Shown: piece after piece, positions 18,710-52,660 of the stretch
Layout: every line of letters begins with the position of its first letter
How positions within the stretch are numbered: position 1 is the stretch's first letter
Source: an uncultured Bacilli bacterium
GTDB lineage: Bacteria > Bacillota_I > Bacilli_A > RF39 > UBA660
Assembly (NCBI GenBank): GCA_947623925.1
Contig: CANQID010000001.1
Coordinates: 4,047-68,046 of the forward strand
Reading direction: 5' to 3'
DNA length: 64,000 nt
Program-made: the position numbers and the translations under genes
The notes under the pieces: generated by a model
The model's database searches: none
The model's input: the letters and a program-made list of their open reading frames with translations, nothing else
Told to the model about the DNA's origin: nothing

Positions 18710-18805
18710 CAGATTGAACTTGATTTGGTACAATTATAAATTGGTGGCATATACTTTTTCTTAAGTATGTGCATTAAATATTATTATAGTTATAGGGGTG
18801 AAATA

Positions 18806-22423: not shown

Positions 22424-25400
22424 TGGATGTTAATCAATTTGAAGCAATAAAAATAGCCATAGCCTCACCTGAAACAATTCGTGGTTGGTCTCATGGAGAA
22501 GTAAAAAAAGCAGAAACAATTAATTACCGTACTTTAAAGCCAGAAAGAGATGGTTTATTCTGTGAAAAAATATTCGGACCTACTAAAGATTTTGAGTGTT
22601 CTTGTGGTAAATATAAAAGATTAAGATACAAAAACATAGTATGTGATAGATGTGGAGTAGAAGTAACAAGAAGTAAAGTTAGACGTGAAAGAATGGGGCA
22701 TATTGAACTTGCTACTCCTTGTTCTCACATTTGGTTTTTTAAAGGTATTCCATCTCGTATGGGACTTGTACTTGATATGTCTCCAAGAGACTTAGAGGAA
22801 GTACTATACTTTGTTTCATATGTAGTTTTAGACCCAGGTAGTACAACTTTAGAAAAAAAACAAACAATAAGTGATAAAGAGTATAGAGTTTACTACGAAA
22901 AATATGGCAATACTTTTAGAGTAGGAATGGGAGCAGAGGCTATCCAAGAATTATTAAAAGAAGTAGATATTGATAAAGAAGTAGAAGAAATCAAAAAAGA
23001 AATAGATGAAATAAAAGATTCTTCAAGTCAAAAACGTATAAGACTTATTAAACGTTTAGATGTACTTAGTGCATTTCAACAATCAGGAAATAAACCAGAA
23101 TGGATGATATTAAATGCACTTCCTGTTATACCACCAGAACTTCGTCCAATGATTCAATTAGATGGTGGTAGATTTGCAACATCCGATTTAAATGACTTAT
23201 ATAGACGTGTTATAAATCGTAATAATCGTCTTAAAAAATTAATGGAATTAGGTGCTCCATCAATTATAATTCAAAATGAAAAACGTATGTTACAAGAAGC
23301 TGTTGATGCATTATTTGATAATGGTAGACGTGGACGTAATATAACAGGAGCAGGTAATAGACCACTTAAATCATTATCAAGTATGTTAAAAGGAAAACAA
23401 GGTCGTTTCCGTCAAAACTTACTTGGTAAACGTGTTGATTATTCTGCTCGTTCAGTTATAGTTGTTGGCCCAAATTTAAAAATGTATGAATGTGGAATTC
23501 CTAAAGAAATGGCACTTGAATTATTTAAACCACATGTAATAAATGGTCTTGTTACAAAAGAAATAGCAAGCAATATTAAAGCTGCTAAAAGAATGATTGA
23601 AAATCAAGACCCTCGTGTTTGGGATATAGTAGAAGAAAAAATAAAAGAACATCCTGTTATGCTTAACCGTGCTCCAACTTTACATAGATTAGGTATTCAA
23701 GCATTTGAACCTAAATTAATAGGTGGTCGTGCAATTAGACTTCATCCACTTGTTTGTGCAGCATTTAATGCAGACTTCGATGGAGACCAAATGGCAGTCC
23801 ATGTACCAATTAGTGATGAAGCTCAAGCAGAAGCAAGAATCCTTATGTTAGGTGCTAACAACATACTATCTCCAAAAGATGGTAAACCAATTGTTACACC
23901 ATCACAAGATATGGTATTAGGAAATTATTATATTACTATGGAAAAAGCAGGCCTTCCTGGAGAAGGTAGAGTATTTAAAGACGACTCAGAAGCATTAATG
24001 TCTTATGAAAGAAGAGAAATTACTTTACATACTCGTATTGCTTTACCTGTAAAATCATTTAAACATAAAATATTCCCTGATATATATATGGACAAATATT
24101 TAGTAACAACACCAGGAAAACTTTTATTTAATGAAATATTCCCTGATACTTTCCAATATATAAATGATGGAAGTGCAGAAAACATTGAAAAAATAACTCC
24201 TAAAAAATATTTCATTAATAGAGGAGAAAATATAAAAGAAGCAATTAAAGAAATGCCACTTGTTGAAGCATTTAATAAAAGTGTATTAGGAAAACTAATC
24301 GCACAAATTTATAAAAGATATCAAACTACTGAAACTTCAGTAATGCTTGATAAATTAAAAGACTTAGGATTTAAGTATTCTACATTATCTGGTATTAGTA
24401 TCGCAATAAGTGATATAAAAGAAAGTAAAATTAAACCTACAGTATTAAAAGAAAGTCAAGATATGGTTGATGCTGTTAATAAACAATTTAAACGTGGTTT
24501 AATTACAGATAATGAAAGATATGAAAAAGTAATAGAAATTTGGAACAATGCTAAAAAGAAAATACAACAAGAACTTGAAGTTATGGTTAATGAAGACAAA
24601 GATAATCCAATTTCAATAATGATGATGAGTAAAGCTCGTGGAGATATTAATTCACATACTCAATTAGTAGGTATGCGTGGATTATTTGCTAAACCTAGTG
24701 GTGGTCAAGTAGAAATCCCTGTTAAATCTTCATTTAGTGAAGGTGTTACTATAAGTGAATTCTTCTTATCTACACACGGTGCTCGTAAAGGAGCAGTTGA
24801 TACTGCATTAAAAACAGCAGATGCTGGATATTTAACAAGAAGACTTGTTGATGTTGCTCAAGATGTAATTGTAAAAGAAGAGGACTGTGGAACTGAACAA
24901 GGTGTTGTTGTTGAAGCATTCATTAATGAAAAAGATGGAACTGTTATTGAATCTTTATATAATCGTATTTTAGGTCGTTATACAAATAAGAAAATAATTC
25001 ATCCTGAAACTAAAGAAGTTATGTACGAAAGAAATACATATATAACAGAACAAGTAGCAGATAAAATTATAGAAGCAGGAATTACAAAAGTACCAATTAG
25101 AACAGTACTTACTTGTAAAACTGAACATGGTGTTTGTAGAAAATGCTATGGTCGTAATTTAGCAACAGGTTCTATAGTTGAAATAGGAGAAGCAGTTGGA
25201 ATTATGGCTGCACAATCAATAGGTGAACCTGGTACTCAATTAACAATGAGAAACTTCAATACTGGTGGTGTAGCCGGTGGAGATGATATTACTCAAGGTT
25301 TACCTCGTGTTCAAGAACTATTTGAAGCACGTAATCCAAAAGGAAAAGCAACTATTTCTGATATAACAGGTAAAGTTACAAAAATAGAAGAATCTGGAGG

Positions 25401-26058
25401 TAAGTTTGTTATTACTGTAACAAATGATGCTGAAAGTAAAGAACACACTTCTAATTATGGTGCTAAACTTGCTGTTGAATTAAATAGTGATGTAGTTGCA
25501 GGTCAAAGACTTACACATGGTGCTATAAGTCCAAAAGAATTGTTAGTTGTAACAGATCCAATTACAGTACAACAATATATATTGCTTGAAATTCAAAAAG
25601 TTTATGGTTCACAAGGTGTTGATATTTCTGATAAACACGTTGAAATTATGGCAAAACGTATGATTTCAAAAATTAAAATTATAAACAGTGGGGATACAAC
25701 TTTCTTACCTGGAACACTTGTAAATATAAATCATTTTGCAAATGTAAATAAAAATTTGATTATAGAAGGTAAACGTCCAGCAACGGGTCGTCCTGTTTTA
25801 CTTGGTATTACTAAAGCATCTTTGGAAACTGATTCATTCTTATCAGCTGCATCTTTCCAAGAAACAACACGTATATTAACAGATGCTGCAATTCATGGAA
25901 AAGTTGATGAGTTAAATGGTTTAAAAGAGAATGTTATTATTGGTAAATTAATACCAGCAGGAACAGGTGCTAAAAAGTATAAAAAAACTGATTATAATTT
26001 AGAAATTGATTTATTAAAAGAAGAACCATTAGAAGCATTAGAAGAAGAATTATTATAA
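22423..26058 (+). CDS. rpoC: DNA-directed RNA polymerase subunit beta'
   Basis: [53 protein letters not shown], zinc-finger CSCGKY...CDRCG, and the NADFDGD catalytic motif. Confidence 0.95.
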
Positions 26059-38808: not shown

Positions 38809-39942
38809 ATGAAATATGATAAAATAATTATAGGTGCTGGTTTATATGGTTTATATTCAGCATTGTATTGTGGCAAAAAGGGTGAGAAAGTAATAGTGCT
38901 AGAAAAAGATAATGAAGCGTTTAAAAGAGCTACCTATATAAATCAAGCTAGAGTTCATATGGGTTATCATTATCCAAGATCATTTTCTACGGCTATTAAA
39001 TCAGCAAATTATTTTGAAAGATTTAATAAAGATTATGGATTTTCAATTTTAAGAGATTTTGATCAAATATATGCAACTAGTTCTAAATTTTCTTGGACAA
39101 ATGCGGAACAATTTAAAAAATTTTGCAAAAATGCTAATATTTTATGTGATGAGGTACCAACAACTAAGTATTTTAAAGAAGGAATGTGCGATGGATGTTT
39201 TTTAACTAAAGAATATACATATGATGCACAAATATTAAAAGATTATTTTTTAAAGGAAATATCTAAATACAAAAATATAACTTTAGAATTTAATGTTGAT
39301 ATAAAAAAGATAGAGAAAAAAGATAAAGTTTATGAGATAATAACTGAAGATAAAAAGTATACTAGTGGTTTTGTTTTAAATTCTACTTATGCCAGTATAA
39401 ATCAAATATTAAAGCTTTTAGATAACAATGCAGAACCATTTAAAATTAAATATGAATTATGTGAAATAATATTATGCACAGTTTCAGAAAAATTTAAAAA
39501 TGTTGGAATAACTGTTATGGATGGTCCATTTTTCTCAATTATGCCATTTGGTAAAACAGGTTATCACTCATTAACATCAGTAACATTTACTCCTCATATT
39601 ACTTCATATGATAGTTTGCCTACTTTTCCATGTCAAAAGAATGCTGAAAAATTAATACCAGGGTATTGTAATCCTGATAAGTTAGGTAATTGTAATGATT
39701 GCCCAGCAAAACCAAAAAGTGCATGGCCTTATATGTCAAACTTGGCTAGAAAATATTTAAAAGAAGAATTTGGATTTGAATATGTAGGATCATTGTTTTC
39801 AATGAAACCAATTTTACTAGCTTCAGAAATAGATGATTCAAGACCAACAGTAATTAAAACATTTTCTACAAATCCAACATTTGTAAGTGTTTTATCTGGA
39901 AAAATAAATACCGTATATGATTTAGAGGAGGTTTTAAAATGA
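38809..39942 (+). CDS. FAD-dependent oxidoreductase (Rossmann GxGxxG, DAO/GR2-like)
   Basis: KIIIGAGLYGLYSALYCGKKGEKVIVLEKD dinucleotide-binding motif. 377 aa. Confidence 0.6.
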   Translation: MKYDKIIIGAGLYGLYSALYCGKKGEKVIVLEKDNEAFKRATYINQARVHMGYHYPRSFSTAIKSANYFERFNKDYGFSILRDFDQIYATSSKFSWTNAEQFKKFCKNANILCDEVPTTKYFKEGMCDGCFLTKEYTYDAQILKDYFLKEISKYKNITLEFNVDIKKIEKKDKVYEIITEDKKYTSGFVLNSTYASINQILKLLDNNAEPFKIKYELCEIILCTVSEKFKNVGITVMDGPFFSIMPFGKTGYHSLTSVTFTPHITSYDSLPTFPCQKNAEKLIPGYCNPDKLGNCNDCPAKPKSAWPYMSNLARKYLKEEFGFEYVGSLFSMKPILLASEIDDSRPTVIKTFSTNPTFVSVLSGKINTVYDLEEVLK

Positions 39943-40871
39943 ATAAAGAAAAAAATTTCGTTTCAGCTGTTGTATATGTAAGGAATAATGAAAATAATAT
40001 TGCTAAATTTATTAAGGAGTTAAATAAGGTATTAAAAACTAACTTTCTTAAATATGAAATTATTTTTGTGAATGATTATTCTACTGATAATACTGTTTAT
40101 GAAATTAAAAAGTTAGTTAAAACTTTGGATACTGCTAGTATAAGTATAATAAATATGAGTATGTATCAAGGAAAAGAAATCGCTATGAATGCTGGTGTTG
40201 ATTTATCAATTGGTGATTTTGTTTATCAATTTGATACAATTTTAATGGATTACGATCCTAATGTTATATTTGATATTTATAAAAAATCATTAGAAGAGTA
40301 TGATATCGTTAATGCTGTTCCAAATAAAAAAAGAAAAGTTTCTTCTAAACTATTTTATAAAATATTTAATAAACATGCTAATTTATCTTATAAATTAGAT
40401 ACTGAAACTTTTAAAATAATATCAAGAAGAGCAATAAATAGAATTTATGCAATAAACAAAACAGTGCCTTATAGAAAAGCAATCGAAGCTGGTAGTGGCT
40501 TAAGAATGGCGAATGTAGAATATGAAGTAGTTAATAATGTTGATTATAAATTAGATAAAACAATTCAAAAAGAAAGAAGAAAAACCGCTGTAAATTCTTT
40601 AATATTATTTACTGATGTAAGTTATAAAATAGCCTTAACTTTATCACTTATAATGATGCTTTTAGTTGTATTAACTGGATGTTATACAGTTGTTATATTT
40701 TTAAGAAATGAAGCTATTAAAGGTTGGACAACTACTATGTTATTTTTAGCTTTTGGATTCTTTGGTATATTTTTAATATTTACAATTATAATTAAGTATT
40801 TATCTATTATTTTAAACCTTGTTTTCAAAAAAACCGATTTCCTAATTGAGTCAGTTCAAAAAATAAAATAG
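39939..40871 (+). CDS. GtrB/CsbB/ArnC-like GT2 polyprenyl-phosphate glycosyltransferase with two C-terminal TM helices
   Basis: N-terminal GT2 fold (VSAVVYVRNNEN..., IIFVNDYSTDNT). Two C-terminal TM helices (IALTLSLIMMLLVVLTG..., TTMLFLAFGFFGIFLIF), the GtrB architecture. Confidence 0.75.
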   Translation: MNKEKNFVSAVVYVRNNENNIAKFIKELNKVLKTNFLKYEIIFVNDYSTDNTVYEIKKLVKTLDTASISIINMSMYQGKEIAMNAGVDLSIGDFVYQFDTILMDYDPNVIFDIYKKSLEEYDIVNAVPNKKRKVSSKLFYKIFNKHANLSYKLDTETFKIISRRAINRIYAINKTVPYRKAIEAGSGLRMANVEYEVVNNVDYKLDKTIQKERRKTAVNSLILFTDVSYKIALTLSLIMMLLVVLTGCYTVVIFLRNEAIKGWTTTMLFLAFGFFGIFLIFTIIIKYLSIILNLVFKKTDFLIESVQKIK

Positions 40872-40878
40872 GTGATTT

Positions 40879-42834
40879 ATGATGAATAAAAAGAAATCAA
40901 TATATATATTATCAATATTAAATGCTATATATTTAATCTATTTAATATGTAGACCATATAAATATCCAGTATTAGGTATTGCATTAATATCTATAATTAT
41001 AATCCTTTTAGATATTTATTTAACACATAAATGGTTAAAAGCTGTAAAAAAAGATAAATTATATTCGAATAAAAAGAAATTAATTCTATATACTGGATTT
41101 AGTACATTATTTTTAATATTGTATTTTTGTGTATGTGGAGGGGTTAAATTTTTTACAAACACTTACCAAGATGCAAAAATTGTTTTTAGTAAAGAAGATA
41201 TATCTCAATCTTTTATTACTAGTATAACTATAGACAATGAAGTATTTAATAATTCTAATAATAAGTTTTATGATGATTTAGGAACAGAGAATACCAAAAT
41301 AAAATTTAAATTAGAAGAAAATAATGCAACATTGACGATAGAAGATGCTCGAAGCGGAATAATTACATTAAATAAAACTAGTGATGGAATGAAAGTAAAA
41401 GATGGTGAAAATAATCGTACAATAAAATTAGAAGATAACGAAGCTATAGAATATGAAATTGGATCATTATCAGTTTTTGATGGTAAATCAGTTATAAGGT
41501 CAGTTATATCCTTAGAATTAATATTGTTTGTAACATTTATGATAGCATCATATTTAATGAATATAAATAATAAAAATAATAAAAATAAGAAAAATATTAT
41601 TATAGCAATGTTAATAGTTGTATTAATAGGCCTATATTATTATCAAACAACAAGAATAGGAAATTTACATCCTGATTCACACGGGTATATTAATTATAAT
41701 TTTCAAGACTTATTAAAATTAAAATTAAATGATCGAACTCCAGTGTATCCATTAATAATAAGAATAATTAGGTTATGCTTTGGTATTAATAATTATTTAA
41801 GAATTATATCTTTCTTTCAATACATTGTATGGTTTATATCAATGATATATTTATATAAATTATTAGAAATATTAATAAAAAATAAAAAATTAGTATTTCT
41901 ATCAACAATATTGTATTCCCTAATGACATCAATTGTTGGTTGGAATAATGTAATTTTAACTGAATCTCTAGCCTTATCAGGAACGGTAATATACATATAT
42001 TATGTAATTAAGTATATAAAAGAAAATAAATTATCAAGCATTATGAAAGCTATAGTCTTATCATTAATATTAACTTTCCATAGACCAACTGCTATAATAT
42101 TAGTATTCTTTTTACCAATATTTTGGATAGTAAGATTTATTTTTGAAAGAGAGCATATAAGGAATGATATAAAGGGTTTTATAGGAAGTATGCTATCAGT
42201 TATAGTAATAGTAATTTATGCAATATTATTTCATAGAACCTATAATATATATTCCATTACCTCTGCAATGGTTAGACAAAATCTTTATGTGAATATGTAT
42301 AGTGGATTTTATAAAAATAGTAATGATGAACAATTTATTTACAGAGTAGAACAAGCTATTGCTAATAATCCTAATAACAAGTGGCAAGGATTAGGAGAAG
42401 TAAAATCACAATATTCAAATGAAGAATTAGTAAGGATTAATAGGCAATGTAAATTAAATAATATTAAAGGGTATTTAAGGTATTTAGTAAATTTAACTGT
42501 AAGTAATATGCCTGTAGAGTTTAGTAGTTATTCTTTTACAACAATAAATTCTAGTGTAAATATAATAAACCAATTTATATCTAGTTCAATTAATATTATA
42601 ACATTTGCAAGTGTTTATTTAGCAATTATAATAGAATTTATAATATTTATTTATAAATGGATTAAAGATAAAAAAATTCCATGGTTAGATGGCGGTTTAT
42701 TTGCTTTTCCACTAGTAATAGTTGCATCAACATTCATAGGAACTAATGCAGAGTTTATGCGTACTGCTATATGTGCAGTTCCATTTACTTTTATTACATA
42801 TATTTTATTAATATCAAGGATAATTAAGGAGTGA
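40879..42834 (+). CDS. large polytopic membrane protein, putative GT-C-fold glycosyltransferase (GtrC/YfhO-like role)
   Basis: 651-aa product with >10 TM helices and an extracytoplasmic loop domain. Sits between the GtrB-like GT2 and the ArnE/F-like pair. Confidence 0.5.
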   Translation: MMNKKKSIYILSILNAIYLIYLICRPYKYPVLGIALISIIIILLDIYLTHKWLKAVKKDKLYSNKKKLILYTGFSTLFLILYFCVCGGVKFFTNTYQDAKIVFSKEDISQSFITSITIDNEVFNNSNNKFYDDLGTENTKIKFKLEENNATLTIEDARSGIITLNKTSDGMKVKDGENNRTIKLEDNEAIEYEIGSLSVFDGKSVIRSVISLELILFVTFMIASYLMNINNKNNKNKKNIIIAMLIVVLIGLYYYQTTRIGNLHPDSHGYINYNFQDLLKLKLNDRTPVYPLIIRIIRLCFGINNYLRIISFFQYIVWFISMIYLYKLLEILIKNKKLVFLSTILYSLMTSIVGWNNVILTESLALSGTVIYIYYVIKYIKENKLSSIMKAIVLSLILTFHRPTAIILVFFLPIFWIVRFIFEREHIRNDIKGFIGSMLSVIVIVIYAILFHRTYNIYSITSAMVRQNLYVNMYSGFYKNSNDEQFIYRVEQAIANNPNNKWQGLGEVKSQYSNEELVRINRQCKLNNIKGYLRYLVNLTVSNMPVEFSSYSFTTINSSVNIINQFISSSINIITFASVYLAIIIEFIIFIYKWIKDKKIPWLDGGLFAFPLVIVASTFIGTNAEFMRTAICAVPFTFITYILLISRIIKE

Positions 42835-42882
42835 TGAAAAATAGTTGCATCGTTAAAAAAAAATAAAAAAGGTATTTTATTA

Positions 42883-43179
42883 ATGCTAGTATCGTCTATA
42901 TTTGCCTGTACAGGTCAATTATTATGGAAATTATCTGCTAATGGTAATATAATATTGTTATTGTGTGGCTTCTGTTTATATGGTTTAGGTGCATTAGTTA
43001 TGCTCTATGCTTATAAGTTTGGGAGCTTATCAGTTCTTCAACCTATTTTAAGTGCTAACTATATTTTTACAATTATTTTAGGAGGATTAATTTTAAAAGA
43101 AGTGATAACAATTAAAAAGGTTATAGGAATACTTATTATTATGGTTGGTGTCATCTTAATTGGTGGTGGCGAAAAATGA
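42883..43179 (+). CDS. small 4-TM DMT/SMR-like transporter subunit (ArnE-like putative polyprenyl-P-sugar flippase subunit)
   Basis: 98-aa product with 3-4 TM helices and the EamA/SMR-like GxxxG pattern. Overlaps the following paralogue by 4 nt. Confidence 0.6.
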   Translation: MLVSSIFACTGQLLWKLSANGNIILLLCGFCLYGLGALVMLYAYKFGSLSVLQPILSANYIFTIILGGLILKEVITIKKVIGILIIMVGVILIGGGEK

Positions 43180-43505
43180 TAAAGTATTACTTAATTTTAA
43201 TAATAATGACTTTTATGGGTTCTATTGCATCTTTATTTTTAAAAAAAACATCTAGTGCTGGTAATTTTATAAGTATGTTAAAAAATATAAATCTTTATAT
43301 TGGAGGTATTTTATATGTAATATCAGCCTTATTAAATATTTATCTTTTAAAATATTTAGATTATTCAATTGTTTTACCAATGACATCTATAACTTATATT
43401 TGGACTCTTATAATATCTGCTAAAATATTAAAAGAGAAAATAACTTTAAATAAAGTACTTGGAGTTACAAGTGTTATTATTGGTGTAATTATATTGGTTA
43501 TATAA
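43176..43505 (+). CDS. small 4-TM DMT/SMR-like transporter subunit (ArnF-like)
   Basis: 109-aa paralogue of the previous gene. Paired small subunits are typical of ArnE/ArnF. Confidence 0.6.
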   Translation: MIKYYLILIIMTFMGSIASLFLKKTSSAGNFISMLKNINLYIGGILYVISALLNIYLLKYLDYSIVLPMTSITYIWTLIISAKILKEKITLNKVLGVTSVIIGVIILVI

Positions 43506-43704
43506 ATAAATATAAAGGTTATAGTATTTGTATTAAATAAAATAACATAATACGTTAAAATATATTTATAAATAAGTTTAATGTCATTATTATGAAATAT
43601 ATATTTAATCATAACATGGATAAATTATAAAAAGAAAAATTCCCTTTGATTTATGCTTTATCTTTTATATGTAATGTATATGATTATATAAGTAGTTAAA
43701 GAAG

Positions 43705-43741
43705 ATTGTCATTTATATTTTTTGTAGATGACAATTTTTTA
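43705..43741 (+). terminator. rho-independent terminator
   Basis: ATTGTCAT (43705-43712) / ATGACAAT (43728-43735) with a 15-nt loop, followed by TTTTTT. Confidence 0.55.
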
Positions 43742-43761
43742 AGTTTTATATTAGAAAACAT

Positions 43762-43830
43762 AACTTTTTTTGTAAATAATAGTAAAAATGGCAATAAATC
43801 TTAAAAAAAATGTATAAATATGGTATAATT
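43762..43830 (+). promoter_or_regulatory. promoter module copy 2 with extended -10 (TGgTATAAT at 43821-43829)
   Basis: Near-identical to 34890-34958. Drives the phosphonate operon. Confidence 0.55.
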
Positions 43831-43881
43831 TTATTTAGGACTTAAAATTAAATTAAGCTGATTTTTTAAGAGGAGATTGAA

Positions 43882-44961
43882 TTGAGTATGTTAAATTTTA
43901 CAGTAGGACCGGTACAGTCTAGTGATAATGTAAGAAAAATTGGTGGTGAACAAGTACCATATTTTAGAACAGAAGAGTTCTCAAATATCATGTTAGAAAA
44001 CGAAAGATTAATTAAAAAATTTTCCAATTCTGGTGAAAATTCTAGAGTAGTATTTATAACAGGCTCTGGTACTGCTTCTATGGAAGCATCTGTTATAAAT
44101 ACTCTTACGAGAGAAGATAAATTATTAATAGTAAATGGTGGTAGTTTTGGACAAAGATTTGCAGAAATTTGTAATATACATGAACTTAATTATACTGAAA
44201 TAAAACTTGAAAGTGGTTGCAAATTAAAATCAAGTGATTTAGAACCATATGATAATAAAGGATATACTGCATTTATTGTTAATGTAGATGAAACATCTAC
44301 AGGAGTATATTATGATTTGAATTTAATTCATGAATTTTGTAAAAAAAATAATTTATTTTTAATAGTAGATGCAATAAGTTCATTTTTAGCAGATGAACTT
44401 GATATGCAAAAATATGAAATAGATGTTATGATCACAGGTTCTCAAAAAGCACTTGCTTGTCCACCTGGAATTTCAGTAATAGTACTTAGAGAAAATGCTT
44501 TAAAAAGAGTCCAAAATACTAATCCTAAATGTATGTATTTGGATTTAAAAAATGCACTATTAAATGGAGAAAGAGGTCAAACTCCTTTTACACCTGCTGT
44601 TGGAATTTTACTTCAAATAAATGAAAGACTAAAAGAAATAGAAAAAAATGGTGGAGTAGAATCTGAAATAAGAAAAATATCATCTATTGCGAATGACTTT
44701 AGAAATAGAATAAAAGATTTGCCTTTAAAAATAACATCAGAATCTTTATCAAATGCTGTAACACCATTATCTCCTTTAAATGTTTCAGCATATGATGTCT
44801 TTCTTACATTAAAAGATAAATATGACATATGGGTTTGTCCAAATGGGGGAGATTTAAAAGAAAAAATCTTTAGAGTTGGTCATATTGGAGATTTAACAAT
44901 TGAAGATAATGATAAATTGATATTAGCTTTAAAAGATATGGCAGATAAGCATTTATTATAA
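43882..44961 (+). CDS. class V aminotransferase, putative 2-aminoethylphosphonate:pyruvate aminotransferase (PhnW/AEP transaminase-like)
   Basis: AGT/class-V PLP fold (FTVGP, ITGSGTASMEA, PLP-lysine context ITGSQKALACPPG). First gene of an operon that also encodes PEP mutase and phosphonopyruvate decarboxylase. The start may be TTG 43882 or ATG 43888. Confidence 0.65.
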   Translation: MSMLNFTVGPVQSSDNVRKIGGEQVPYFRTEEFSNIMLENERLIKKFSNSGENSRVVFITGSGTASMEASVINTLTREDKLLIVNGGSFGQRFAEICNIHELNYTEIKLESGCKLKSSDLEPYDNKGYTAFIVNVDETSTGVYYDLNLIHEFCKKNNLFLIVDAISSFLADELDMQKYEIDVMITGSQKALACPPGISVIVLRENALKRVQNTNPKCMYLDLKNALLNGERGQTPFTPAVGILLQINERLKEIEKNGGVESEIRKISSIANDFRNRIKDLPLKITSESLSNAVTPLSPLNVSAYDVFLTLKDKYDIWVCPNGGDLKEKIFRVGHIGDLTIEDNDKLILALKDMADKHLL

Positions 44962-44982
44962 TATAAAAATGGAAGTGATATA

Positions 44983-46335
44983 TTGACTAGAGTAATTACT
45001 TATGGAACATATGATTTGTTACATTATGGACATATACGTTTATTAGAAAGAGCTAAACAATTAGGAGATTACTTAATTGTTGCAGTTACTTCAGATGACT
45101 TTGATAAAAAAAGAGGTAAAATTAATGTAAAACAATCATTAATGGAACGTATAGAAGCAGTAAGAAATACAGGACTTGCTGATGAGATTATAGTTGAAGA
45201 ATATGAAGGGCAAAAAATTGATGATATTAAAAGATATAATATTGATATATTTACTGTCGGATCTGATTGGAAGGGTAAATTTGATTATTTAAAAGAATAT
45301 TGTGATGTAGTGTATTTAGATAGAACGGAAGGTATTTCAAGTTCTAAACTTCGTTCAGAAACAACAACTCTTAAATTAGGAATAGTAGGTAACATTAAAC
45401 TTGCAGAAAAGTATATAACTGAAAGCAAATTTGTAAATGGATTAGAAATAGTTTCAATTTGTACAAATGATATTATTGAATTTGATACCGAAAATTTACA
45501 AAAATATTCTTATGATGAATATGATAAATTTTTAAGTAATATTGATGCAGTATATGTAGTATCTAATCCTAATGAACATTTTAATTTTGTTGATGAGGCA
45601 ATTAAAAATAAAAAACATGTTTTGTGTGAAACACCAATATGTTTAAAAAAAGATGAATGTTTATTATTATTTAAACAAGCTAAAGAAAATGGTGTAATAT
45701 TAATGGAGTCTAATAAGACTGCTTATTCAACTGCTTTTAATAGACTCTCATTATTAGTAAAAACAGGTTTAATAGGAAAAATTGTCTCAGTAGATGCAAC
45801 TTGTACAAGCATGGAAGAATATTTAAAGACAAATATAGAAGATATGCCAAAAAAACAAAATAGTATGTGTGCTTGGGGGTCTGTCGCTTTAGTTCCTATA
45901 TTTCAGTTGTTAGGAACGAATTATAACAAAATTCATTTTAGCACTTATTATTTAGATAAAAATATAAATTTTGATTTGTTTACGAAAGTAGATTTTAACT
46001 ATAATAATGCAGTTGCCTCTATAAAGGTTGGAAAAGGTGTTAAATCAGAGGGGGAACTTATTATTACAGGCACTAAAGGTTATATTTATGTCCCATCTCC
46101 TTGGTGGAAAACAGATTACTTTGAGATAAGATATGAATCACAAAATGACAATAAAAGATATTTCTATCAACTTGATGGTGAAGGCATAAGATATGAATTA
46201 GTAACTTTTCTTAAATCTGTTGAAAATGAAAAAAATTTATCATATATAGAACAAGAAATTAGTGAAGCAATAACTTTAGTTATTGAGAAATTTAATAATA
46301 AAGAAAATTTAGATGAAATATTTGTAGAAAGTTAG
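44983..46335 (+). CDS. bifunctional fusion: TagD-like glycerol-3-phosphate cytidylyltransferase domain + Gfo/Idh/MocA-family NAD(P)-dependent oxidoreductase domain
   Basis: N-terminal 130 aa closely match TagD (VITYGTYDLLHYGHIRLLERAKQLGDYLIVAV, DIFTVGSDWKGKFDYL, RTEGISSSKLR). C-terminal ~310 aa have a Gfo/Idh/MocA Rossmann region (LKLGIVGNIKLAEKYI, HVLCETP). Confidence 0.8.
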   Translation: MTRVITYGTYDLLHYGHIRLLERAKQLGDYLIVAVTSDDFDKKRGKINVKQSLMERIEAVRNTGLADEIIVEEYEGQKIDDIKRYNIDIFTVGSDWKGKFDYLKEYCDVVYLDRTEGISSSKLRSETTTLKLGIVGNIKLAEKYITESKFVNGLEIVSICTNDIIEFDTENLQKYSYDEYDKFLSNIDAVYVVSNPNEHFNFVDEAIKNKKHVLCETPICLKKDECLLLFKQAKENGVILMESNKTAYSTAFNRLSLLVKTGLIGKIVSVDATCTSMEEYLKTNIEDMPKKQNSMCAWGSVALVPIFQLLGTNYNKIHFSTYYLDKNINFDLFTKVDFNYNNAVASIKVGKGVKSEGELIITGTKGYIYVPSPWWKTDYFEIRYESQNDNKRYFYQLDGEGIRYELVTFLKSVENEKNLSYIEQEISEAITLVIEKFNNKENLDEIFVES

Positions 46336-46343
46336 GTTATAGT

Positions 46344-47231
46344 ATGACTGAGGTAAAAGAATTAACAAAAGAAGAATTCAGAAAAATGCAATTAATGCAG
46401 TTAGATATGATTAAAGAACTTGATAGGGTGTGTAGAAAACATAACATTAAATATACAATATTTGCGGGCACATTACTTGGAGCAGTAAGACATAAAGGAT
46501 ATATACCATGGGATGATGATGCTGATATTGCCATGTTAAGAGAAGAATATGAAAAGTTTAAATTAGTTGCAGATGAATTAGATTCAAGTATATGTTATTT
46601 TCAAGACCATACTACTGATCCTAATTACAGATGGGGGTATGCAAAATTAAGACGAACTAATACTGAATATATTAGGGTTGGTCAAGAACACTTAAAATGT
46701 AAAACTGGATTTTTTATAGATATTTTTCCAATGGATGATATTCCAAAATCTACAATTGGTCAAGTTTTTAATGATTTTTATTGCTTTTGCTTGAGAAAAA
46801 TATTATATTCTGAGGTTGGCAAAGTTTCAAAAAGTGAAAGTAAATTATCAAGAAAATGGTATTCATTATTGTCAAAAATTCCAACTAATAAAGTATGGAA
46901 AAGATTAGATAAAATGACAAAAAAAAGTAATAATTCTAGTGAAAATAGAGTTAGAATATATCTTTTCCCTTCACTTGGAAAATCAAATAAAAAAAATTCA
47001 TTAAAGACAAAGTATGGAATGCCAAAGGAATGGTTTTTAAATTTTAACGAATATGATTTTGAAGAAAATAAATTTTATGGTACAGCTGATTATGATTCTT
47101 GTTTAAAATATCTTTATGATGACTATATGAAGTTACCACCTGAAGATAAAAGAGAGCAACACTCACCAACTTCTTCATATAGTTTTGATACGACAATTAG
47201 AAATAAAATTCGAGAGGATGATAATAAATGA
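46344..47231 (+). CDS. licD: LicD-family phosphotransferase (CDP/CMP-activated phospho-head-group transferase, fukutin/LicD superfamily)
   Basis: MQLMQLDMIKELDRVCRKHNIKYTIFAGTLLGAVRHKGYIPWDDDADIAM (LicD DxD core) and a conserved downstream D.F.D segment (GFFIDIFPMDD). Confidence 0.8.
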   Translation: MTEVKELTKEEFRKMQLMQLDMIKELDRVCRKHNIKYTIFAGTLLGAVRHKGYIPWDDDADIAMLREEYEKFKLVADELDSSICYFQDHTTDPNYRWGYAKLRRTNTEYIRVGQEHLKCKTGFFIDIFPMDDIPKSTIGQVFNDFYCFCLRKILYSEVGKVSKSESKLSRKWYSLLSKIPTNKVWKRLDKMTKKSNNSSENRVRIYLFPSLGKSNKKNSLKTKYGMPKEWFLNFNEYDFEENKFYGTADYDSCLKYLYDDYMKLPPEDKREQHSPTSSYSFDTTIRNKIREDDNK

Positions 47232-48535
47232 ATAAAAAAGTATATATAGCTATGTCCGCTGATTTTATTCATGATGGTCATATTAATGTAATAGAAGAAG
47301 GCTCAAGATATGGAGATGTAATTATTGGACTTTTAACAGATGAAGCAATAGCAACTTATAAAAGGATGCCATTACTAAATTATGATACTAGAAAGCGCAT
47401 TTTTGAGAACATGAAACATGTTAAAGAAGTAGTAAAGCAAGAAACTTTGGATTATACAAATAATTTAAAAAAAATAAAACCTGATTATGTAATTCATGGA
47501 GACGATTGGAAAAAAGGAATACAAAGTGTTATTAGACAAAAGGTTATTGATACTTTAAAAGAATGGAATGGAAAACTTATAGAAATTCCTTATACTATAG
47601 GTAACAATTGCACAGATTTAGAACATGAATATAGAATGCTAACAAATACACCTGATAATAGAAGAAGTAAACTAAAAAAATTATTAAATTTAAAACCTTA
47701 TATAAGTGTAATGGAAGCATCTAATGGATTAACAGGGTTGATTGTTGAAAATGCAAGAGTTGAAAACGAAAAGACAGGTTATTTAAAAGAATTTGATGCT
47801 ATGTGGGTAAGTAGTTTATGTGATTCTACATTTAAGGGAAAACCTGATATTGAATTAGTTGATTTAACTAGTAGAATAAATACAATTAATGAAATAATGG
47901 AAGTTACTACGAAACCTATAATTTTAGATGGTGATACAGGTGGAAAGGTAGAACACTTTGTTTATAATGTAAAAACACTAGAAAGATTGGGCGTTTCAGC
48001 AATAATAATAGAGGATAAAACTGGTTTAAAGAAAAACTCACTTTTTGGTACAGAAGTAGAACAGACACTTGATGATCCAGATAATTTTGCTAATAAAATT
48101 AGAGCAGGTAAGCAGGCTTTAGTAACTCGTGATTTTTTGATATTTGCTCGTCTAGAAAGTTTAATTGCAGGTAAAGGTATTGATGATGCATTATTTCGTG
48201 CTAAAAAATATTTAGAAGCAGGTGCTGATGGAATAATGATTCATAGCAAAGAAAAAGATGGCTCTGAAATTAAAGAATTTTTGAAAATATTTAGGAAAAA
48301 TTATCCAAATGTTCCAGTAATTGTTGTTCCAACTTCATATAATCAGTTTACTGAAAGTGAATTACATGAGTGGGGAGCAAATATAATAATTCATGCTAAT
48401 CATTTACTTAGAAGTGCATATCCAGCTATGATGAAAACAGCAAAATCAATTTTAGAAAATGGAAGAAGTAAAGAAGCAGATGAATACTGTATGCCTATTA
48501 AAGAAATTTTAACATTAATTCCAGGAGGTAAATAA
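47228..48535 (+). CDS. ppm: fusion: HxGH-type cytidylyltransferase domain + phosphoenolpyruvate phosphomutase (Ppm)
   Basis: N-terminal ~130 aa match the cytidylyltransferase-like family (IAMSADFIHDGHINVI). C-terminal ~290 aa are PEP mutase/ICL superfamily (VMEASNGLTGLIVENA, ILDGDTGGKVEHF, IIEDKTGLKKNSLFG, ARLES). Confidence 0.85.
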   Translation: MNKKVYIAMSADFIHDGHINVIEEGSRYGDVIIGLLTDEAIATYKRMPLLNYDTRKRIFENMKHVKEVVKQETLDYTNNLKKIKPDYVIHGDDWKKGIQSVIRQKVIDTLKEWNGKLIEIPYTIGNNCTDLEHEYRMLTNTPDNRRSKLKKLLNLKPYISVMEASNGLTGLIVENARVENEKTGYLKEFDAMWVSSLCDSTFKGKPDIELVDLTSRINTINEIMEVTTKPIILDGDTGGKVEHFVYNVKTLERLGVSAIIIEDKTGLKKNSLFGTEVEQTLDDPDNFANKIRAGKQALVTRDFLIFARLESLIAGKGIDDALFRAKKYLEAGADGIMIHSKEKDGSEIKEFLKIFRKNYPNVPVIVVPTSYNQFTESELHEWGANIIIHANHLLRSAYPAMMKTAKSILENGRSKEADEYCMPIKEILTLIPGGK

Positions 48536-49645
48536 ATGGTTGATACTGAAAAATTTTATGATTATTTGATTACTAAAAATTTAGATTTTTTTGCAGGGGT
48601 ACCGGATTCTTTATTAAAGAATCTGTGTTCTTGTATTAAAGAAAAATCTGATAAAACGCATAATATTATAACATCAAATGAAGGTAATGCAGTAGCTCTA
48701 GCGTCAGGTTATCATATTTCATCAGGTAAGTATGGTGTTGTATATATGCAAAATTCTGGAATTGGAAATGCGGTTAATCCTTTACTATCTTTAGCTGATG
48801 AAGAGGTTTATAGTATTCCAATGTTATTAATAGTTGGATGGCGTGGAGAGCCTGGCATTAAAGACGAACCTCAACATATTAAACAAGGTAAAGTTACAAT
48901 CGAATTATTTGAAACAATGGGAATAGAGTGTGTTATATTAGATGAAAATTATCAAGAAAAAATAGATTATTGCTATAAATATATAAGCAGTAATAATAAA
49001 CCTATTGCTTTAATTGTAAAAAAAGGTTTATTTACTGAATATAAATCTTCTAAACCAATTAATAATTATTTAATAACTAGAGAAGAAGCTTTAGAAACAA
49101 TTGTAGATTGTTTAAATGAAAATGATTTTATTGTTTCTACAACAGGAAAAACTTCAAGAGAACTTTTTGAAATAAGAGAAAAAAGGAAAGAAAAACATAG
49201 TAATGATTTTTTAACTGTTGGTTCTATGGGACATACTTCTTCTATAGCTCTAGGAATGAGTATTGGCAGTGAAAATAATATATATTGCATTGATGGTGAT
49301 GGTTCATTTATTATGCATATGGGTTCATTTGCAATAATACCTACAGTTGCAAAACAAAATTTTAAGTATATTTTAATAAATAATGGTGCACATGAATCTG
49401 TTGGGGGACAACCTACTGTTGCATTCAATATAGATATTCAAAAAATGTTATTATCATTAGGATTTAAAAATGTATATATTGCAAAAACAAATGAAGAAAT
49501 AAAAAAGTATATGAATAATTTAAAAAATGGTGAATTACAAGCATTAGTAATTTATACTAAATTAGGTTCTAGAGATAATCTTGGAAGACCTACAATTAGT
49601 CCTATAGAAAATAAAAAAGCAATGATGGAAAAATTTAGAAATTAG
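48536..49645 (+). CDS. ppd: phosphonopyruvate decarboxylase (ThDP-dependent)
   Basis: N-terminal FFAGVPDSLLKN, ThDP-binding GDGS...NNG region (IDGDGSFIMHMGS...INNGAHESVGG). Immediately follows ppm. Confidence 0.85.
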   Translation: MVDTEKFYDYLITKNLDFFAGVPDSLLKNLCSCIKEKSDKTHNIITSNEGNAVALASGYHISSGKYGVVYMQNSGIGNAVNPLLSLADEEVYSIPMLLIVGWRGEPGIKDEPQHIKQGKVTIELFETMGIECVILDENYQEKIDYCYKYISSNNKPIALIVKKGLFTEYKSSKPINNYLITREEALETIVDCLNENDFIVSTTGKTSRELFEIREKRKEKHSNDFLTVGSMGHTSSIALGMSIGSENNIYCIDGDGSFIMHMGSFAIIPTVAKQNFKYILINNGAHESVGGQPTVAFNIDIQKMLLSLGFKNVYIAKTNEEIKKYMNNLKNGELQALVIYTKLGSRDNLGRPTISPIENKKAMMEKFRN

Positions 49646-49653
49646 GTGTAGAA

Positions 49654-50382
49654 ATGAAAGCAATTATATTTAATTCTGGTATTGGTAAACGAATGGGTGA
49701 ATTTACAAAAAAGCATCATAAATCAATGGCAGTATTAAAAAATAAAGAAACAATTTTTGAAAGACAGATTAGGATTTTAAGTGAATGTGGAATAAGAGAA
49801 TTTGTTGTTACAACAGGTCCTTTTAAAGAACAACTTATAGAGGTAACTAAAAAGTTTCAAAATTTGAAATTTAATTTTGTTCAAAATGATTTATATGATA
49901 GTACAAACTATATATATTCTATGTATTTAGCTAGAAAAAATTTTGATGATGATTTTTTGTTACTACATGGTGATTTGGTTTTTAATAAAGATTTAGTAGA
50001 AGAAATGATAGGTGAAAAAAATTCAACTTGTTTAATAAATGAAAATAAACCTTTACCTGAAAAAGATTTTAAAGGAAGAATAAAAAATGGTAAATTAAAA
50101 GAAGTTTCAATAAATATTTTTGATCAAGATTGCTATGCTTTTCAACCACTTTACAAGTTAAATAAATCTGATTTATTAGCGTGGTCTAATGCTGTTGAAA
50201 AATTTGTAGAAGAAGGTAATAGAGGTGTATATGCAGAAAATGCATTAAATACAATTTTAAATGATATAAATATATATGCAAAATCATATAGTAATCACTA
50301 TATTGATGAGATAGATAATTTAGAAGATTATAATAGAGTTATAAATGAAATTGAAGAATTTGAAAAATTAAAAACAAAGTAA
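49654..50382 (+). CDS. LicC-like nucleotidyltransferase (putative phosphonate/phospho-head-group cytidylyltransferase, PntC-like)
   Basis: NTP_transferase fold with MKAIIFNSGIGKRMGEFT (G-x-G-x-R). 242 aa, similar in size to LicC. Confidence 0.7.
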   Translation: MKAIIFNSGIGKRMGEFTKKHHKSMAVLKNKETIFERQIRILSECGIREFVVTTGPFKEQLIEVTKKFQNLKFNFVQNDLYDSTNYIYSMYLARKNFDDDFLLLHGDLVFNKDLVEEMIGEKNSTCLINENKPLPEKDFKGRIKNGKLKEVSINIFDQDCYAFQPLYKLNKSDLLAWSNAVEKFVEEGNRGVYAENALNTILNDINIYAKSYSNHYIDEIDNLEDYNRVINEIEEFEKLKTK

Positions 50383-50397
50383 TGTTTGAGGTGATTT

Positions 50398-51492
50398 ATG
50401 AATAATCAACAATTTATTTATAGTTATGATGAAATATCTAATATAATTGATTTAGAACAAAATAATAATATCTTTATTGTATGTGATAAATTTTTAATGG
50501 ATTCATTTATTATAAATTATTTAAAAAAAATAAGTAGAAATATTTTTATATTTACTGAATTTAATCCAAATCCAAAATATGAAGATGTATTATTAGGAAT
50601 TGATTTATTCAAAAAAAATAATTGTAACTTTATAATATCTATAGGTGGTGGTAGTGCTATAGATGTTGCGAAATGTATAAAGGCTTTTGTTACATTAAAT
50701 GATAAAAAAAATTATTTGGAACAGGAAATTATTAAAAATGATATAAATCATTTAGCAATTCCTACAACTGCTGGGACAGGCAGTGAATCTACTCATTTTG
50801 CTGTAATTTATTATGAAGAAAATAAATATTCAGTAGATGATAGTACCTTACTTCCAACTTATGTATTATTGGAATCTAAATTTTTAGAAAGTTTACCAAT
50901 ATATCAAAAAAAATCAACGATGTTAGATGCACTTTGTCAAGGAATAGAATCACTTTGGAGCGTCAATTCAACAGAAGAAAGTAAGGAATATGCTATTAAG
51001 GCTATTCAATTAATTTTAAATAATTATAGAGATTATATTAATGAAAATAAAAGTGTTTATAATGATATTATGTTAGCAGCGAATTACAGTGGGAGAGCTA
51101 TAAATATAAGTAAAACAACTGCACCTCATGCAATGAGTTATAAAATAACATCTTTATATGGAATTAGTCATGGACATGCTGTTGCATTATGTTTACCATA
51201 TGTATGGGAATATATGATTAATAATATAGATAAGATAATTGATAAAAGGGGAGTAAAATATTTAAAAGATATTTTTAATAGACTAGATATATTATTTAAT
51301 TGTGATTCACATATTGAATCAATAAATAAATTTAAGAATATTTGTAGTGAAATAAATTTAAATATTAAAGGTATAGTAAAAAGGAAAGATTTACAACTTT
51401 TGGTTTCTTCAGTGAATATACAAAGATTAAGCAATAATCCAGTTAGTTTAAATAAAGAAGAAATAAAAAAAATATATGAAAAACTTGCTTAG
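50398..51492 (+). CDS. iron-containing (group III) alcohol dehydrogenase, candidate phosphonoacetaldehyde reductase
   Basis: Fe-ADH motifs IISIGGGSAIDVAKCI and IPTTAGTGSEST. It is the last gene of the ppm-ppd operon. Confidence 0.7.
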   Translation: MNNQQFIYSYDEISNIIDLEQNNNIFIVCDKFLMDSFIINYLKKISRNIFIFTEFNPNPKYEDVLLGIDLFKKNNCNFIISIGGGSAIDVAKCIKAFVTLNDKKNYLEQEIIKNDINHLAIPTTAGTGSESTHFAVIYYEENKYSVDDSTLLPTYVLLESKFLESLPIYQKKSTMLDALCQGIESLWSVNSTEESKEYAIKAIQLILNNYRDYINENKSVYNDIMLAANYSGRAINISKTTAPHAMSYKITSLYGISHGHAVALCLPYVWEYMINNIDKIIDKRGVKYLKDIFNRLDILFNCDSHIESINKFKNICSEINLNIKGIVKRKDLQLLVSSVNIQRLSNNPVSLNKEEIKKIYEKLA

Positions 51493-51634
51493 TTTATATG
51501 TACTACTTTACACTCTTATTTTATTGCAACTTTATTTTAATGTGTATATATGGTATACTTTATAGTAAGATATAAAATTTTTATAATATAAATTAATGTT
51601 ATAGTATTAATTAAGACTAGTTTAGAGGTGTTTC

Positions 51635-52660
51635 ATGAAAAAGATAATAGTACCTGTAAGTTATATGGGATCTGGTTCTTCAGCAGTAACCGATTTAATA
51701 AGTGAATTTAAAGATGTAAACAATGAATATGGATATTTTGAATATGTTTTTTTACATTGTCCTGGTGGTGTTTTTGATTTAGAGGATAAATTATTAAATG
51801 GCAATAATATTTTAAGAAGTGACGAAGCAATTAAAAATTTTTTAAATACAATGAAACAACTTTATGATAAAAAATATTGGTGGGTTGGTAATTACAAATA
51901 TAAGATAAATGAAAAATTTTATAGTAGAACAGAACAATATATTAAAGAATTAACAGATTTTTCTTTAAACAGTTATTGGTATTATCAAGAAAATACTAAT
52001 TTAAAAATGTATTTTAAACTTATAGTAAATAAAATAGTTAAATTTATAACATTTGGCAAGGTTAAATTAAAAAGACCTTTGTTATATAATACAATGAATC
52101 TTGCATACCCTTCAAAAGAAAAATTTTATGCTATTACAAAAAAATATATATATGATATTTTAGAAATGTTTGATGATTCTGACAATGATATTTTATTTGA
52201 TCAATTATTGTTACCTTATAATCTTTTTAGAATAGATAATTATTTTAATGACGATTTAAAGGTTATAGTTGTTGAAAGAGATCCACGTGATGTTTTTTTA
52301 CAAAATAAATATATTTATTCTAAAACAAATAATATTGTACCTTTTTCATGTGATGTAGATGAATTTTGTAAGCAATATAGAATGATACGTGAGATGGAAG
52401 TAATAAGTAATAGTTCTAAGATTCTTAGAATTAGATTTGAAGATTTGGTATATAAATATGATAAAACAAAACAAATTATAATGAAATTTTTAGGATATAA
52501 TGAAAAAGATCATATTAATCCAAAGGGGAAATTTGATCCTAGTAAATCAATAAAAAATACCCAATTATTTAAAAAAGAAGAATATGTTAAGGAAGGAAAA
52601 ATTATTGAAAAAAATTTAAAAGAATATTTATATGATTTTGAAGATGAAGAGAGGAATTAA
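51635..52660 (+). CDS. sulfotransferase-family protein (putative polysaccharide sulfotransferase)
   Basis: N-terminal PAPS 5'-phosphosulfate-binding-like loop (VSYMGSGSSAVTDLI) and a 3'-phosphate-binding-like VVERDPRDVFLQ (the RDPRD motif of the Sulfotransfer_3/Stf0 family). Confidence 0.45.
   Translation: MKKIIVPVSYMGSGSSAVTDLISEFKDVNNEYGYFEYVFLHCPGGVFDLEDKLLNGNNILRSDEAIKNFLNTMKQLYDKKYWWVGNYKYKINEKFYSRTEQYIKELTDFSLNSYWYYQENTNLKMYFKLIVNKIVKFITFGKVKLKRPLLYNTMNLAYPSKEKFYAITKKYIYDILEMFDDSDNDILFDQLLLPYNLFRIDNYFNDDLKVIVVERDPRDVFLQNKYIYSKTNNIVPFSCDVDEFCKQYRMIREMEVISNSSKILRIRFEDLVYKYDKTKQIIMKFLGYNEKDHINPKGKFDPSKSIKNTQLFKKEEYVKEGKIIEKNLKEYLYDFEDEERN

Follow-up and report, generated by a model that had tools for sequence, protein, structure and literature searches.

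Surface glycans of bacteria carry small charged head groups such as phosphocholine, phosphoethanolamine, aminoethylphosphonate, D-alanyl groups and glycerol phosphate. Recognition by the immune system, adsorption of phages and resistance to cationic peptides are all governed by these groups, and the zwitterionic polysaccharides of gut commensals are known immunomodulators. Some head groups are activated as cytidine diphosphate (CDP) derivatives, as by the CDP-ribitol synthases Bcs1 and TarIJ, which belong to the IspD-like and MDR/SDR families. Here we analyse a 64,000-nucleotide stretch of DNA from an uncultured Bacilli bacterium (assembly GCA_947623925.1, contig CANQID010000001.1, positions 4,047 to 68,046 of the forward strand; hereafter the window). 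One gene of the window, at 44983..46335 on the + strand, joins a TagD-like cytidylyltransferase (CT) to a domain of the Gfo/Idh/MocA (GFO) oxidoreductase fold, families that differ from those of Bcs1 and TarIJ.

In Streptococcus pneumoniae, a CDP-2-glycerol pathway, said to have been described by Wang et al. in 2010, reportedly uses a dihydroxyacetone reductase and a cytidylyltransferase among the proteins Gtp1, Gtp2 and Gtp3 to supply a side group of the capsule. The pathway is completed by WchX, a phosphotransferase dedicated to it (PMC1391919). In Campylobacter jejuni, (S)-serinol phosphate is a building block of the capsule (PMC12096443; PMC13276843), and on the way to it Cj1437 transaminates dihydroxyacetone phosphate (DHAP) with glutamate (PMC12096443). 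We propose that the fusion described here would act as the nucleotide-activation enzyme of a three-gene head-group module, together with an aminotransferase and a LicD-family phosphotransferase. The aminotransferase gene, immediately upstream of the fusion, is the strongest clue to this function, and it was missed in the initial annotation of the window.

Results

A TagD-like cytidylyltransferase is fused to a GFO-fold domain

The fusion gene consists of a single open reading frame (ORF) of 450 amino acids (aa) with a TTG start. The purine-rich sequence GGAAGTGA lies shortly 5' of the start codon, and 21 nt separate the start from the stop of the upstream gene. Pfam assigns CTP_transf_like to residues 5-124 (E 3e-20, above the gathering score) and GFO_IDH_MocA (PF01408) to residues 131-241 (E 1.2e-14, 55.5 bits against a cutoff of 24). 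The AlphaFold2 model, built with 120 homologues, has a mean pLDDT of 88.7 and falls below 50 only at linker residues 122-124. The initial annotation had read the two domains as one polypeptide, unless a frameshift or stop in the linker had gone unnoticed and made them two genes. Neither was found at the domain junction, and the uninterrupted ORF, the Pfam domains and the AlphaFold2 and Foldseek results all support a single polypeptide.

A protein search with the fusion returned at least 8000 database matches, and the best 120 were aligned to represent its clade (clade A). All 120 are 434-474 aa long, are at least 60% identical to the fusion over the full length and contain both Pfam domains. 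In a species and locus scan of genome contigs, performed with peptide patterns that favour clade A, relatives were found to be encoded in at least 590 GTDB species of the Bacillota, Bacteroidota, Spirochaetota, Elusimicrobiota and Campylobacterota. Among the carriers are Eubacterium ramulus (locus L079), Segatella copri, Blautia faecis, Muribaculaceae, Oscillospiraceae, Lachnospiraceae and metagenome-assembled genomes (MAGs) of spirochaetes, Elusimicrobia and Helicobacter. Because the two-domain architecture is kept over the full length of the 120 homologues and relatives occur in so many species, the fusion is genuine and not an assembly artefact. Its members are publicly named "Gfo/Idh/MocA family oxidoreductase", "glycerol-3-phosphate cytidylyltransferase" or "choline-phosphate cytidylyltransferase".

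The cytidylyltransferase domain keeps its motifs but departs from TagD

Residues 1-127 (44983..45363, + strand) form the TagD-like CT domain, which would carry out the CDP-forming step. Their best match in the PDB is TagD of Bacillus subtilis (1COZ, E 1.6e-38), and TarD of Staphylococcus aureus (2B7L) is matched as well. The HxGH motif is present as H14-Y-G-H17, aligned with H14-W-G-H17 of TagD, and residues R114-T-E-G-I-S-S120 align with RTEGISTT of TagD. In the 120 relatives, H14, G16 and H17 of the first motif are invariant, as are R114, T115, S119 and S120 of the second. Since both motifs are intact and invariant, the CT domain is probably active. It is also the best-conserved part of the fusion, with a mean pairwise identity of 83% in clade A and 76% in its sister clade, clade B (see below).

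The domain had initially been called an almost textbook TagD. It is indeed of the TagD type, but this description says too much: against the TagD equivalog TIGR01518 the fusion reaches 120.5 bits, below the cutoff of 165.4. Moreover, three TagD residues are replaced, R63 by G64, K72 by E73 and W74 by E75. R63 is the conserved arginine of the RYVD motif, and W74 is a tryptophan of the head-group pocket that aligns with W151 of CCT. Among the clade A relatives, G64 is found in 119/120 and E75 in 120/120. G64, E73 and E75 are common to clades A and B and thus distinguish all of these fusions from TagD. Within the CT domain, the two clades differ only by the subtle changes F40/Y40 and I47/L47, both located in the lysine-bearing substrate loop. 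The acidic loop E72-E73-Y74-E75 was considered as a mark of amine specificity and rejected, as clade B has the same loop.

The fusion could in principle be a plain CDP-glycerol synthase of the TagD kind that carries an inert extra domain, with the aminotransferase engaged in an unrelated step of polysaccharide synthesis. The match to TagD and the intact motifs would agree with such an enzyme, and so would the TagF-like CDP-glycerol glycerophosphotransferases that neighbour the fusion in 7 loci and the public naming of some members as glycerol-3-phosphate cytidylyltransferases. The score below the equivalog cutoff and the replacement of R63, K72 and W74 argue in the other direction. We regard this explanation as unlikely, since it would account neither for the presence of one or the other aminotransferase family 12-14 nt upstream in about 80% of the loci, nor for the pairing of the aminotransferase with a degenerate GFO domain only, both of which are documented below.

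The GFO-fold domain has lost its cofactor-binding and catalytic motifs

The remainder of the fusion, residues 128-450 (45364..46335, + strand), forms a degenerate GFO-fold domain, a predicted pseudo-dehydrogenase. Compared with the PDB by sequence, this C-terminal part matches the GFO-family structures 4HAD, 3E9M and 3EVN, and Foldseek gave target TM-scores of 0.77-0.84 to 3E9M, 3EVN, 2O48, 4HAD and KijD10. In pairwise alignments, the EKP motifs of 4HAD, 3E9M, 3EVN, YjhC and GFOR all fall opposite E216-T217-P218, and the His/Tyr acid/base of solved GFO enzymes falls opposite Val301. The dinucleotide loop reads G133-I-V-G136-N-I138-K-L-A141 against the consensus GxxGxGxxG/A, so that Ile138 occupies the position of the central Gly.

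The initial annotation had predicted an NAD(P)-dependent GFO reductase that makes an alditol phosphate, with the catalytic Lys/His as the feature to be checked. These residues are gone: in the fusion, Thr217, Val301 and Ile138 stand in place of the Lys, the His/Tyr and the central Gly, and in the relatives the Lys is retained in 0/120 and a His/Tyr in 0/120. We compared these positions with those of 25 sequences of clade B. The Lys of EKP, present in 24 of the clade B sequences, is replaced in clade A by Ser (83 sequences), Ala (21), Thr (15) or Gly (1). At the catalytic Tyr/His position, where all 25 clade B sequences have Tyr, clade A has Thr (82), Val (14), Ile (13) or Ala (8). The central Gly of the dinucleotide loop is retained in 9/120 sequences of clade A and in 24/25 of clade B, and the last G/A of the loop in 4/120 and, as Ala, in 25/25. 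Finally, a Glu four residues N-terminal of the Tyr is present in 23/25 clade B sequences and unconserved in clade A.

Conservation is unevenly distributed along the domain. The region from the P-loop to beta3, which is the fastest-evolving part in clade A, has an identity of 35% within clade A versus 62% within clade B, and the C-terminal sheet subdomain has 65% within each clade. Judged from these identities, the cofactor-binding part of clade A, and specifically that part, is under relaxed constraint, even though the CT domain is better conserved in clade A than in clade B. His199, Glu216, Lys245 and the blocks WWKTDYFE, GKGVKSEG and QLDGEGIRYE are still conserved, and the domain thus remains under selection for something; this retained role could be in folding, in oligomerisation via the GFO sheet, in docking or in another function. 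Some apparently stand-alone C-terminal domains of clade A (P0390, P0391, P0394) resemble truncated or chimeric gene calls and were not used as evidence.

All together, the GFO domain of clade A is, with high probability, not a canonical dehydrogenase. The fusion clearly belongs to the TagD and GFO folds, yet by score and motifs it falls outside both the TagD equivalog family and the catalytic GFO enzymes. The scheme initially put forward, in which NAD(P)H-dependent reduction of DHAP or of a pentulose phosphate by the GFO domain yields an alditol phosphate for activation by the CT domain, has a parallel in the logic of Bcs1/TarIJ and fits clade B, with its intact GxGxxA, EKP and E-x3-Y motifs and its LicD/TagF neighbours. 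For the fusion itself it is scarcely credible, as the cofactor loop, the catalytic Lys and the Tyr/His are lost in the fusion and in all 120 close relatives.

An aminotransferase is coupled to the degenerate fusion

The gene directly upstream of the fusion (43882..44961, + strand) encodes a class V aminotransferase dependent on pyridoxal phosphate (PLP), AT5 (Pfam Aminotran_5, E 9.5e-22), which would catalyse the first step of the module. We surveyed the gene context of the fusion in 80 loci with our own ORF calls, clustered the neighbours by BLAST and annotated one representative of each cluster with Pfam and NCBIfam. Of the 71 clade A loci analysed, 64 (about 90%) encode a PLP aminotransferase at most 6 genes from the fusion, and in 57/71 it is the immediate 5' neighbour on the same strand, separated by a median of 12-14 nt. 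The class V family alone occupies 39 loci and a HisC-like class I/II family alone 23; the former is directly 5' on the same strand in 40/71 loci, at a median gap of 14 nt. That two unrelated aminotransferase families fill the same slot looks like non-orthologous displacement at a single step of a pathway.

The association depends on the state of the GFO domain. An aminotransferase accompanies the degenerate domain in 64/71 loci and the intact domain in 0/8 (Fisher p = 2.5e-7). The fusion is thus very probably coupled to the aminotransferase in function. That the aminotransferase is restricted to fusions with a dead GFO domain makes it most plausible that it replaces the reductase and does not act after it.

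A route at the level of the nucleotide can also be envisaged: the CT domain would make CDP-glycerol, the C2 hydroxyl of this product would be oxidised by the GFO domain, which would use non-canonical residues or hold a cofactor tightly, and the resulting CDP-dihydroxyacetone would be aminated by the aminotransferase, in the manner of GnnA/GnnB and WlbA/WlbC. Indeed, pairs of GFO dehydrogenases and aminotransferases are established for amino sugars, models and structures of UDP-GlcNAc 3-dehydrogenases (NF040723, 7BVJ, 3Q2K) are among the weaker matches of the fusion, and His199 and Glu216 are retained. However, this route predicts an aminotransferase beside an intact GFO domain, and the opposite was observed. 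In addition, no conserved functional group takes the place of the Lys (S/A/T/G) or the Tyr (T/V/I/A), the residues in the dinucleotide loop are bulky and variable, and the partner aminotransferases come from families that act on small phosphorylated substrates, not from the DegT sugar-nucleotide family. We therefore hold it to be very improbable.

A sister clade with an intact GFO domain

Clade B was reached through one of the surveyed loci (L073) and a second protein search. It is a large group of TagD-GFO fusions (L073, L083-L093; P0150-P0269) with intact GxGxxA, EKP and E-x3-Y; P0234 of Butyricimonas is one of its members. The two clades separate cleanly, with a median identity of 61% within clade A, 62% within clade B and 48% between them. 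In 8 independent contexts of clade B, neither a class V nor a HisC-like aminotransferase was found beside the fusion (0/8). The neighbours in these contexts are TagF-like and/or LicD transferases, often with a Metallophos phosphoesterase. By reducing DHAP, the intact GFO domain of clade B would supply its CT domain with a glycerol phosphate, and a CDP-alditol synthase formed by GFO reductase and CT is plausible in this clade.

A HMMER search with the C-terminal domain recovered 159 representative clusters at E <= 1e-30. EKP-intact relatives stand alone or are fused as GFO+GDPD, GFO+Metallophos, Metallophos+CT+GFO, Metallophos+CT+GFO+GDPD (1240 aa), LicD+GFO+GDPD (907 aa) or CT+CT+GFO. The multi-domain proteins of this GFO subfamily include P0414, P0417, P0425, P0431, P0435-P0437 and P0459, in which EKP is intact where checked. 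The subfamily is thus embedded in chemistry of the glycerophospho-diester and CDP-glycerol type, which supports a three-carbon phosphorylated substrate.

A proposed route to an activated amino-alcohol phosphate

Directly downstream of the fusion, 8 nt after its stop codon, starts a gene for a LicD-family phosphotransferase (PF04991; 46344..47231, + strand; Pfam E 6.2e-43), which would transfer the head group to a glycan. The initial annotation had singled out LicD as a partner, and the co-occurrence survey agrees with it: LicD is directly 3' of the fusion in 10/71 related loci and at most 6 genes away in 33/71. In the window, flippase, O-antigen-ligase-like and glycosyltransferase genes lie near the fusion-LicD pair.

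The following mechanism may be suggested. The aminotransferase would convert a small keto-phosphate to an amino-alcohol phosphate, most likely DHAP to serinol phosphate. The TagD-like domain would then form CDP-serinol from serinol phosphate and cytidine triphosphate (CTP), and LicD would move the amino-alcohol phosphate onto a cell-surface glycan to yield a zwitterionic decoration. In clade A, the GFO domain would be what is left of a former reductase, and its retention probably serves folding, docking or oligomerisation. What we infer from these data is in which order the steps occur, that DHAP and serinol phosphate are the substrates, that the CT domain is active and what the dead domain does. 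For the scheme as a whole, from the aminotransferase that makes serinol phosphate through the CDP derivative and LicD transfer to the pseudo-dehydrogenase relic, we would not claim more than a tentative preference, doubting it slightly more than we trust it. Still more tentatively, CDP-serinol (CDP-2-amino-2-deoxyglycerol), a nucleotide-activated amino-alditol not described before, and a zwitterionic serinol-phosphate decoration installed by LicD- or TagF-type transferases may be made by hundreds of species from the gut and the rumen, among them Segatella copri, Blautia and Eubacterium.

The chemistry of the substrate can be approached through the HisC-like partner. The natural substrate of HisC is a ketone next to CH2-O-phosphate. 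The partner scores 235 bits against TIGR01141 (hisC), its best PDB matches are all histidinol-phosphate aminotransferases, and the substrate is probably phosphorylated with three carbons. An amine product is plausible and is consistent with the GNAT acetyltransferases that neighbour the fusion in 7 loci. The same three steps might nevertheless serve another head group, such as ethanolamine phosphate, an aminopropanediol phosphate derived from glyceraldehyde-3-phosphate or a longer amino-alditol phosphate, for neither the coupling to the aminotransferase nor the dead GFO domain fixes the substrate. The class V partner falls in the AGXT/serine-pyruvate/2-aminoethylphosphonate (AEP) transaminase group, which also takes aldehydes, and the HisC family includes decarboxylases such as CobD. 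Against CobD, however, the HisC-like partner scores 144 bits, far lower than on hisC; no abundant keto-phosphate other than DHAP resembles the substrate of HisC; the domain network centres on glycerol phosphate; and the CT fold is of the small TagD type. A different head group thus appears quite unlikely.

Several points weigh against the serinol phosphate scheme. As clades A and B both have G64, E73 and E75, these residues are not marks of amine specificity. In its C-terminal half, the GFO domain of clade A is no less conserved than that of clade B, and an unrecognised catalytic or ligand-binding function is therefore possible. The 80 loci were the best matches to the fusion in a pattern scan biased towards clade A, 7 of the clade A loci have no aminotransferase nearby, and the clade B sample is small, its 8 contexts coming from exact-protein look-ups. 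The aminotransferase at 43882..44961 could additionally serve the adjacent phosphonate genes described below. Lastly, our literature searches found no paper on the TagD-GFO fusion, its partner aminotransferases, CDP-serinol or a serinol-phosphate decoration; CDP-serinol was not mentioned in the literature searched, and the only related work found was that on the serinol amide of C. jejuni.

Phosphonate genes and the surrounding locus

A set of phosphonate genes (47228..51492) directly follows LicD. It contains a cytidylyltransferase-Ppm fusion (TIGR02320, 392 bits), a phosphonopyruvate decarboxylase (Ppd; TIGR03297, 437 bits), a LicC/PntC-like NTP_transf_3 protein and an Fe-alcohol dehydrogenase. 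As the locus has no bona fide AEP transaminase, the set reads as a 2-hydroxyethylphosphonate/CMP-2-hydroxyethylphosphonate (CMP-HEP) route of the Fom1/FomC kind and not as an AEP route. LicD might, as initially suggested, install the phosphonate.

Could the aminotransferase nevertheless be an AEP transaminase, with the CT domain forming CMP-AEP or a related CMP-phosphonate? Both genes stand in one co-directional block with the CT-Ppm, Ppd, PntC-like transferase and Fe-alcohol dehydrogenase genes, the best NCBIfam match of the aminotransferase is the PhnW-AepZ model, and phosphonate tailoring as a rule involves nucleotidyl activation (PMC6697681). On the other hand, the aminotransferase scores far under the AEP transaminase cutoffs (168 vs 361 bits for TIGR03301, 128 vs 401 for TIGR02326). 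Its orthologue in the PDB is 3F0H (474 bits), a structure without assigned function, whereas the AEP transaminase 7E7G reaches only 91 bits. Moreover, two further cytidylyltransferase domains of the cluster are already available for phosphonates, and essentially every other locus with the aminotransferase-fusion pair lacks Ppm. A Ppm homologue adjoins the fusion solely in the window's own contigs among the surveyed loci, and Ppd-like genes were seen 9 kb from the fusion in two other loci, both of Bacteroidales. The phosphonate genes are thus outside the conserved core module. After the neighbour survey and the PDB comparison we rejected the upstream aminotransferase as an AEP transaminase of the phosphonate cluster, and a phosphonate role for the pair appears highly improbable.

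The genes rpoB and rpoC (18767..26058) are followed downstream by a long surface-polysaccharide locus, co-directional throughout, of which the module is a part. Upstream of the aminotransferase, the interval 39939..43505 holds a GT2 glycosyltransferase gene followed by genes for a 651-aa protein without Pfam match and, side by side, two half-size EamA proteins (98 and 109 aa), an arrangement that resembles a set for lipid-carrier sugar transfer and flipping. A 341-aa protein with weak sulfotransferase-family matches (E 1e-5, under the gathering score) is encoded at 51635..52660, between the phosphonate genes and the O-antigen-ligase-like gene. A scan of 43300..52000 for promoters and terminators performed no better on this AT-rich DNA than on shuffled sequence. 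In other genomes, a pair formed by a polysaccharide pyruvyl transferase and an FrhB/FdhB-like Fe-S protein adjoins the aminotransferase-fusion module in about 11 loci (L006, L008, L024, L027, L034, L057, L067 and L071 among them).

All 49 ORFs of at least 150 aa in the window are on the + strand, the GC skew is persistently positive and the GC content is 17-34%. The RpoB protein of the window is about 81% identical to its nearest named relatives, which are MAGs of uncultured "Bacilli bacterium".

Discussion

For clade A, both the oxidoreductase and the glycerol-3-phosphate cytidylyltransferase labels are probably misleading. If the module makes a CDP-amino-alcohol, it would provide a new donor substrate and a new surface epitope, and gene context would suggest a function for the structural-genomics entry 3F0H. 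The pair of clades A and B offers a testable case of product change, in which a transaminase would have taken the place of a reductase and the old domain would serve as a scaffold. If this is true, the GFO domain would be a clear natural case of a pseudoenzyme, the recruited aminotransferase having taken over its substrate.

Which of the known systems does the module resemble most? Residues 1-127 of the fusion have the fold and the HxGH and RTEGIS(S/T) motifs of TagD/TarD (1COZ, 1N1D, 2B7L), and the chemistry, in which CTP and a small phosphate monoester yield a CDP-alcohol, is presumably the same. Unlike TagD/TarD, the fusion falls below the equivalog cutoff, is joined to a GFO-fold domain of 320 residues and has an aminotransferase partner. 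Bcs1 and TarI-TarJ follow a similar logic, in that they couple formation of the alcohol phosphate by one enzyme to its CDP activation by another, and this logic plausibly applies to clade B; unlike in Bcs1/TarIJ, the reductase-like domain of clade A is without cofactor-binding and catalytic motifs. The pneumococcal Gtp enzymes are separate proteins, unlike the fusion, and the pathway reportedly has no aminotransferase.

Where an aminotransferase is involved, GnnA/GnnB and WlbA/WlbC are like the fusion locus in that a GFO-fold protein and an aminotransferase occur together in a glycan pathway. In these systems, however, the GFO protein is intact and acts first, whereas here the aminotransferase occurs only with a degenerate GFO domain and is not of the DegT family. 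Cj1437, compared here by its reaction, is a precedent for a dedicated aminotransferase of a capsule locus that converts DHAP to serinol phosphate. Unlike in the proposed module, serinol phosphate in C. jejuni is amide-ligated to glucuronate by an ATP-dependent ligase and then dephosphorylated, with neither cytidylyl activation nor LicD transfer.

The Lic and Pnt pathways (LicC or PntC with LicD) follow the same logic as proposed here, in that a small cationic phosphate or phosphonate is activated as a CMP/CDP derivative and transferred by LicD (PMC6697681). The CT domain of the fusion is of the TagD type (PF01467), whereas the Lic/Pnt activator is of the LicC type (PF12804), and the Lic/Pnt head group comes from a kinase or from Ppm/Ppd, whereas that of the proposed module would be made de novo by transamination. 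By analogy, the module would thus share the head-group logic of Lic/Pnt but combine it with a TagD-type CT and a transaminase-made substrate, and its likeness to Bcs1/TarIJ would lie only in the ancestral logic.

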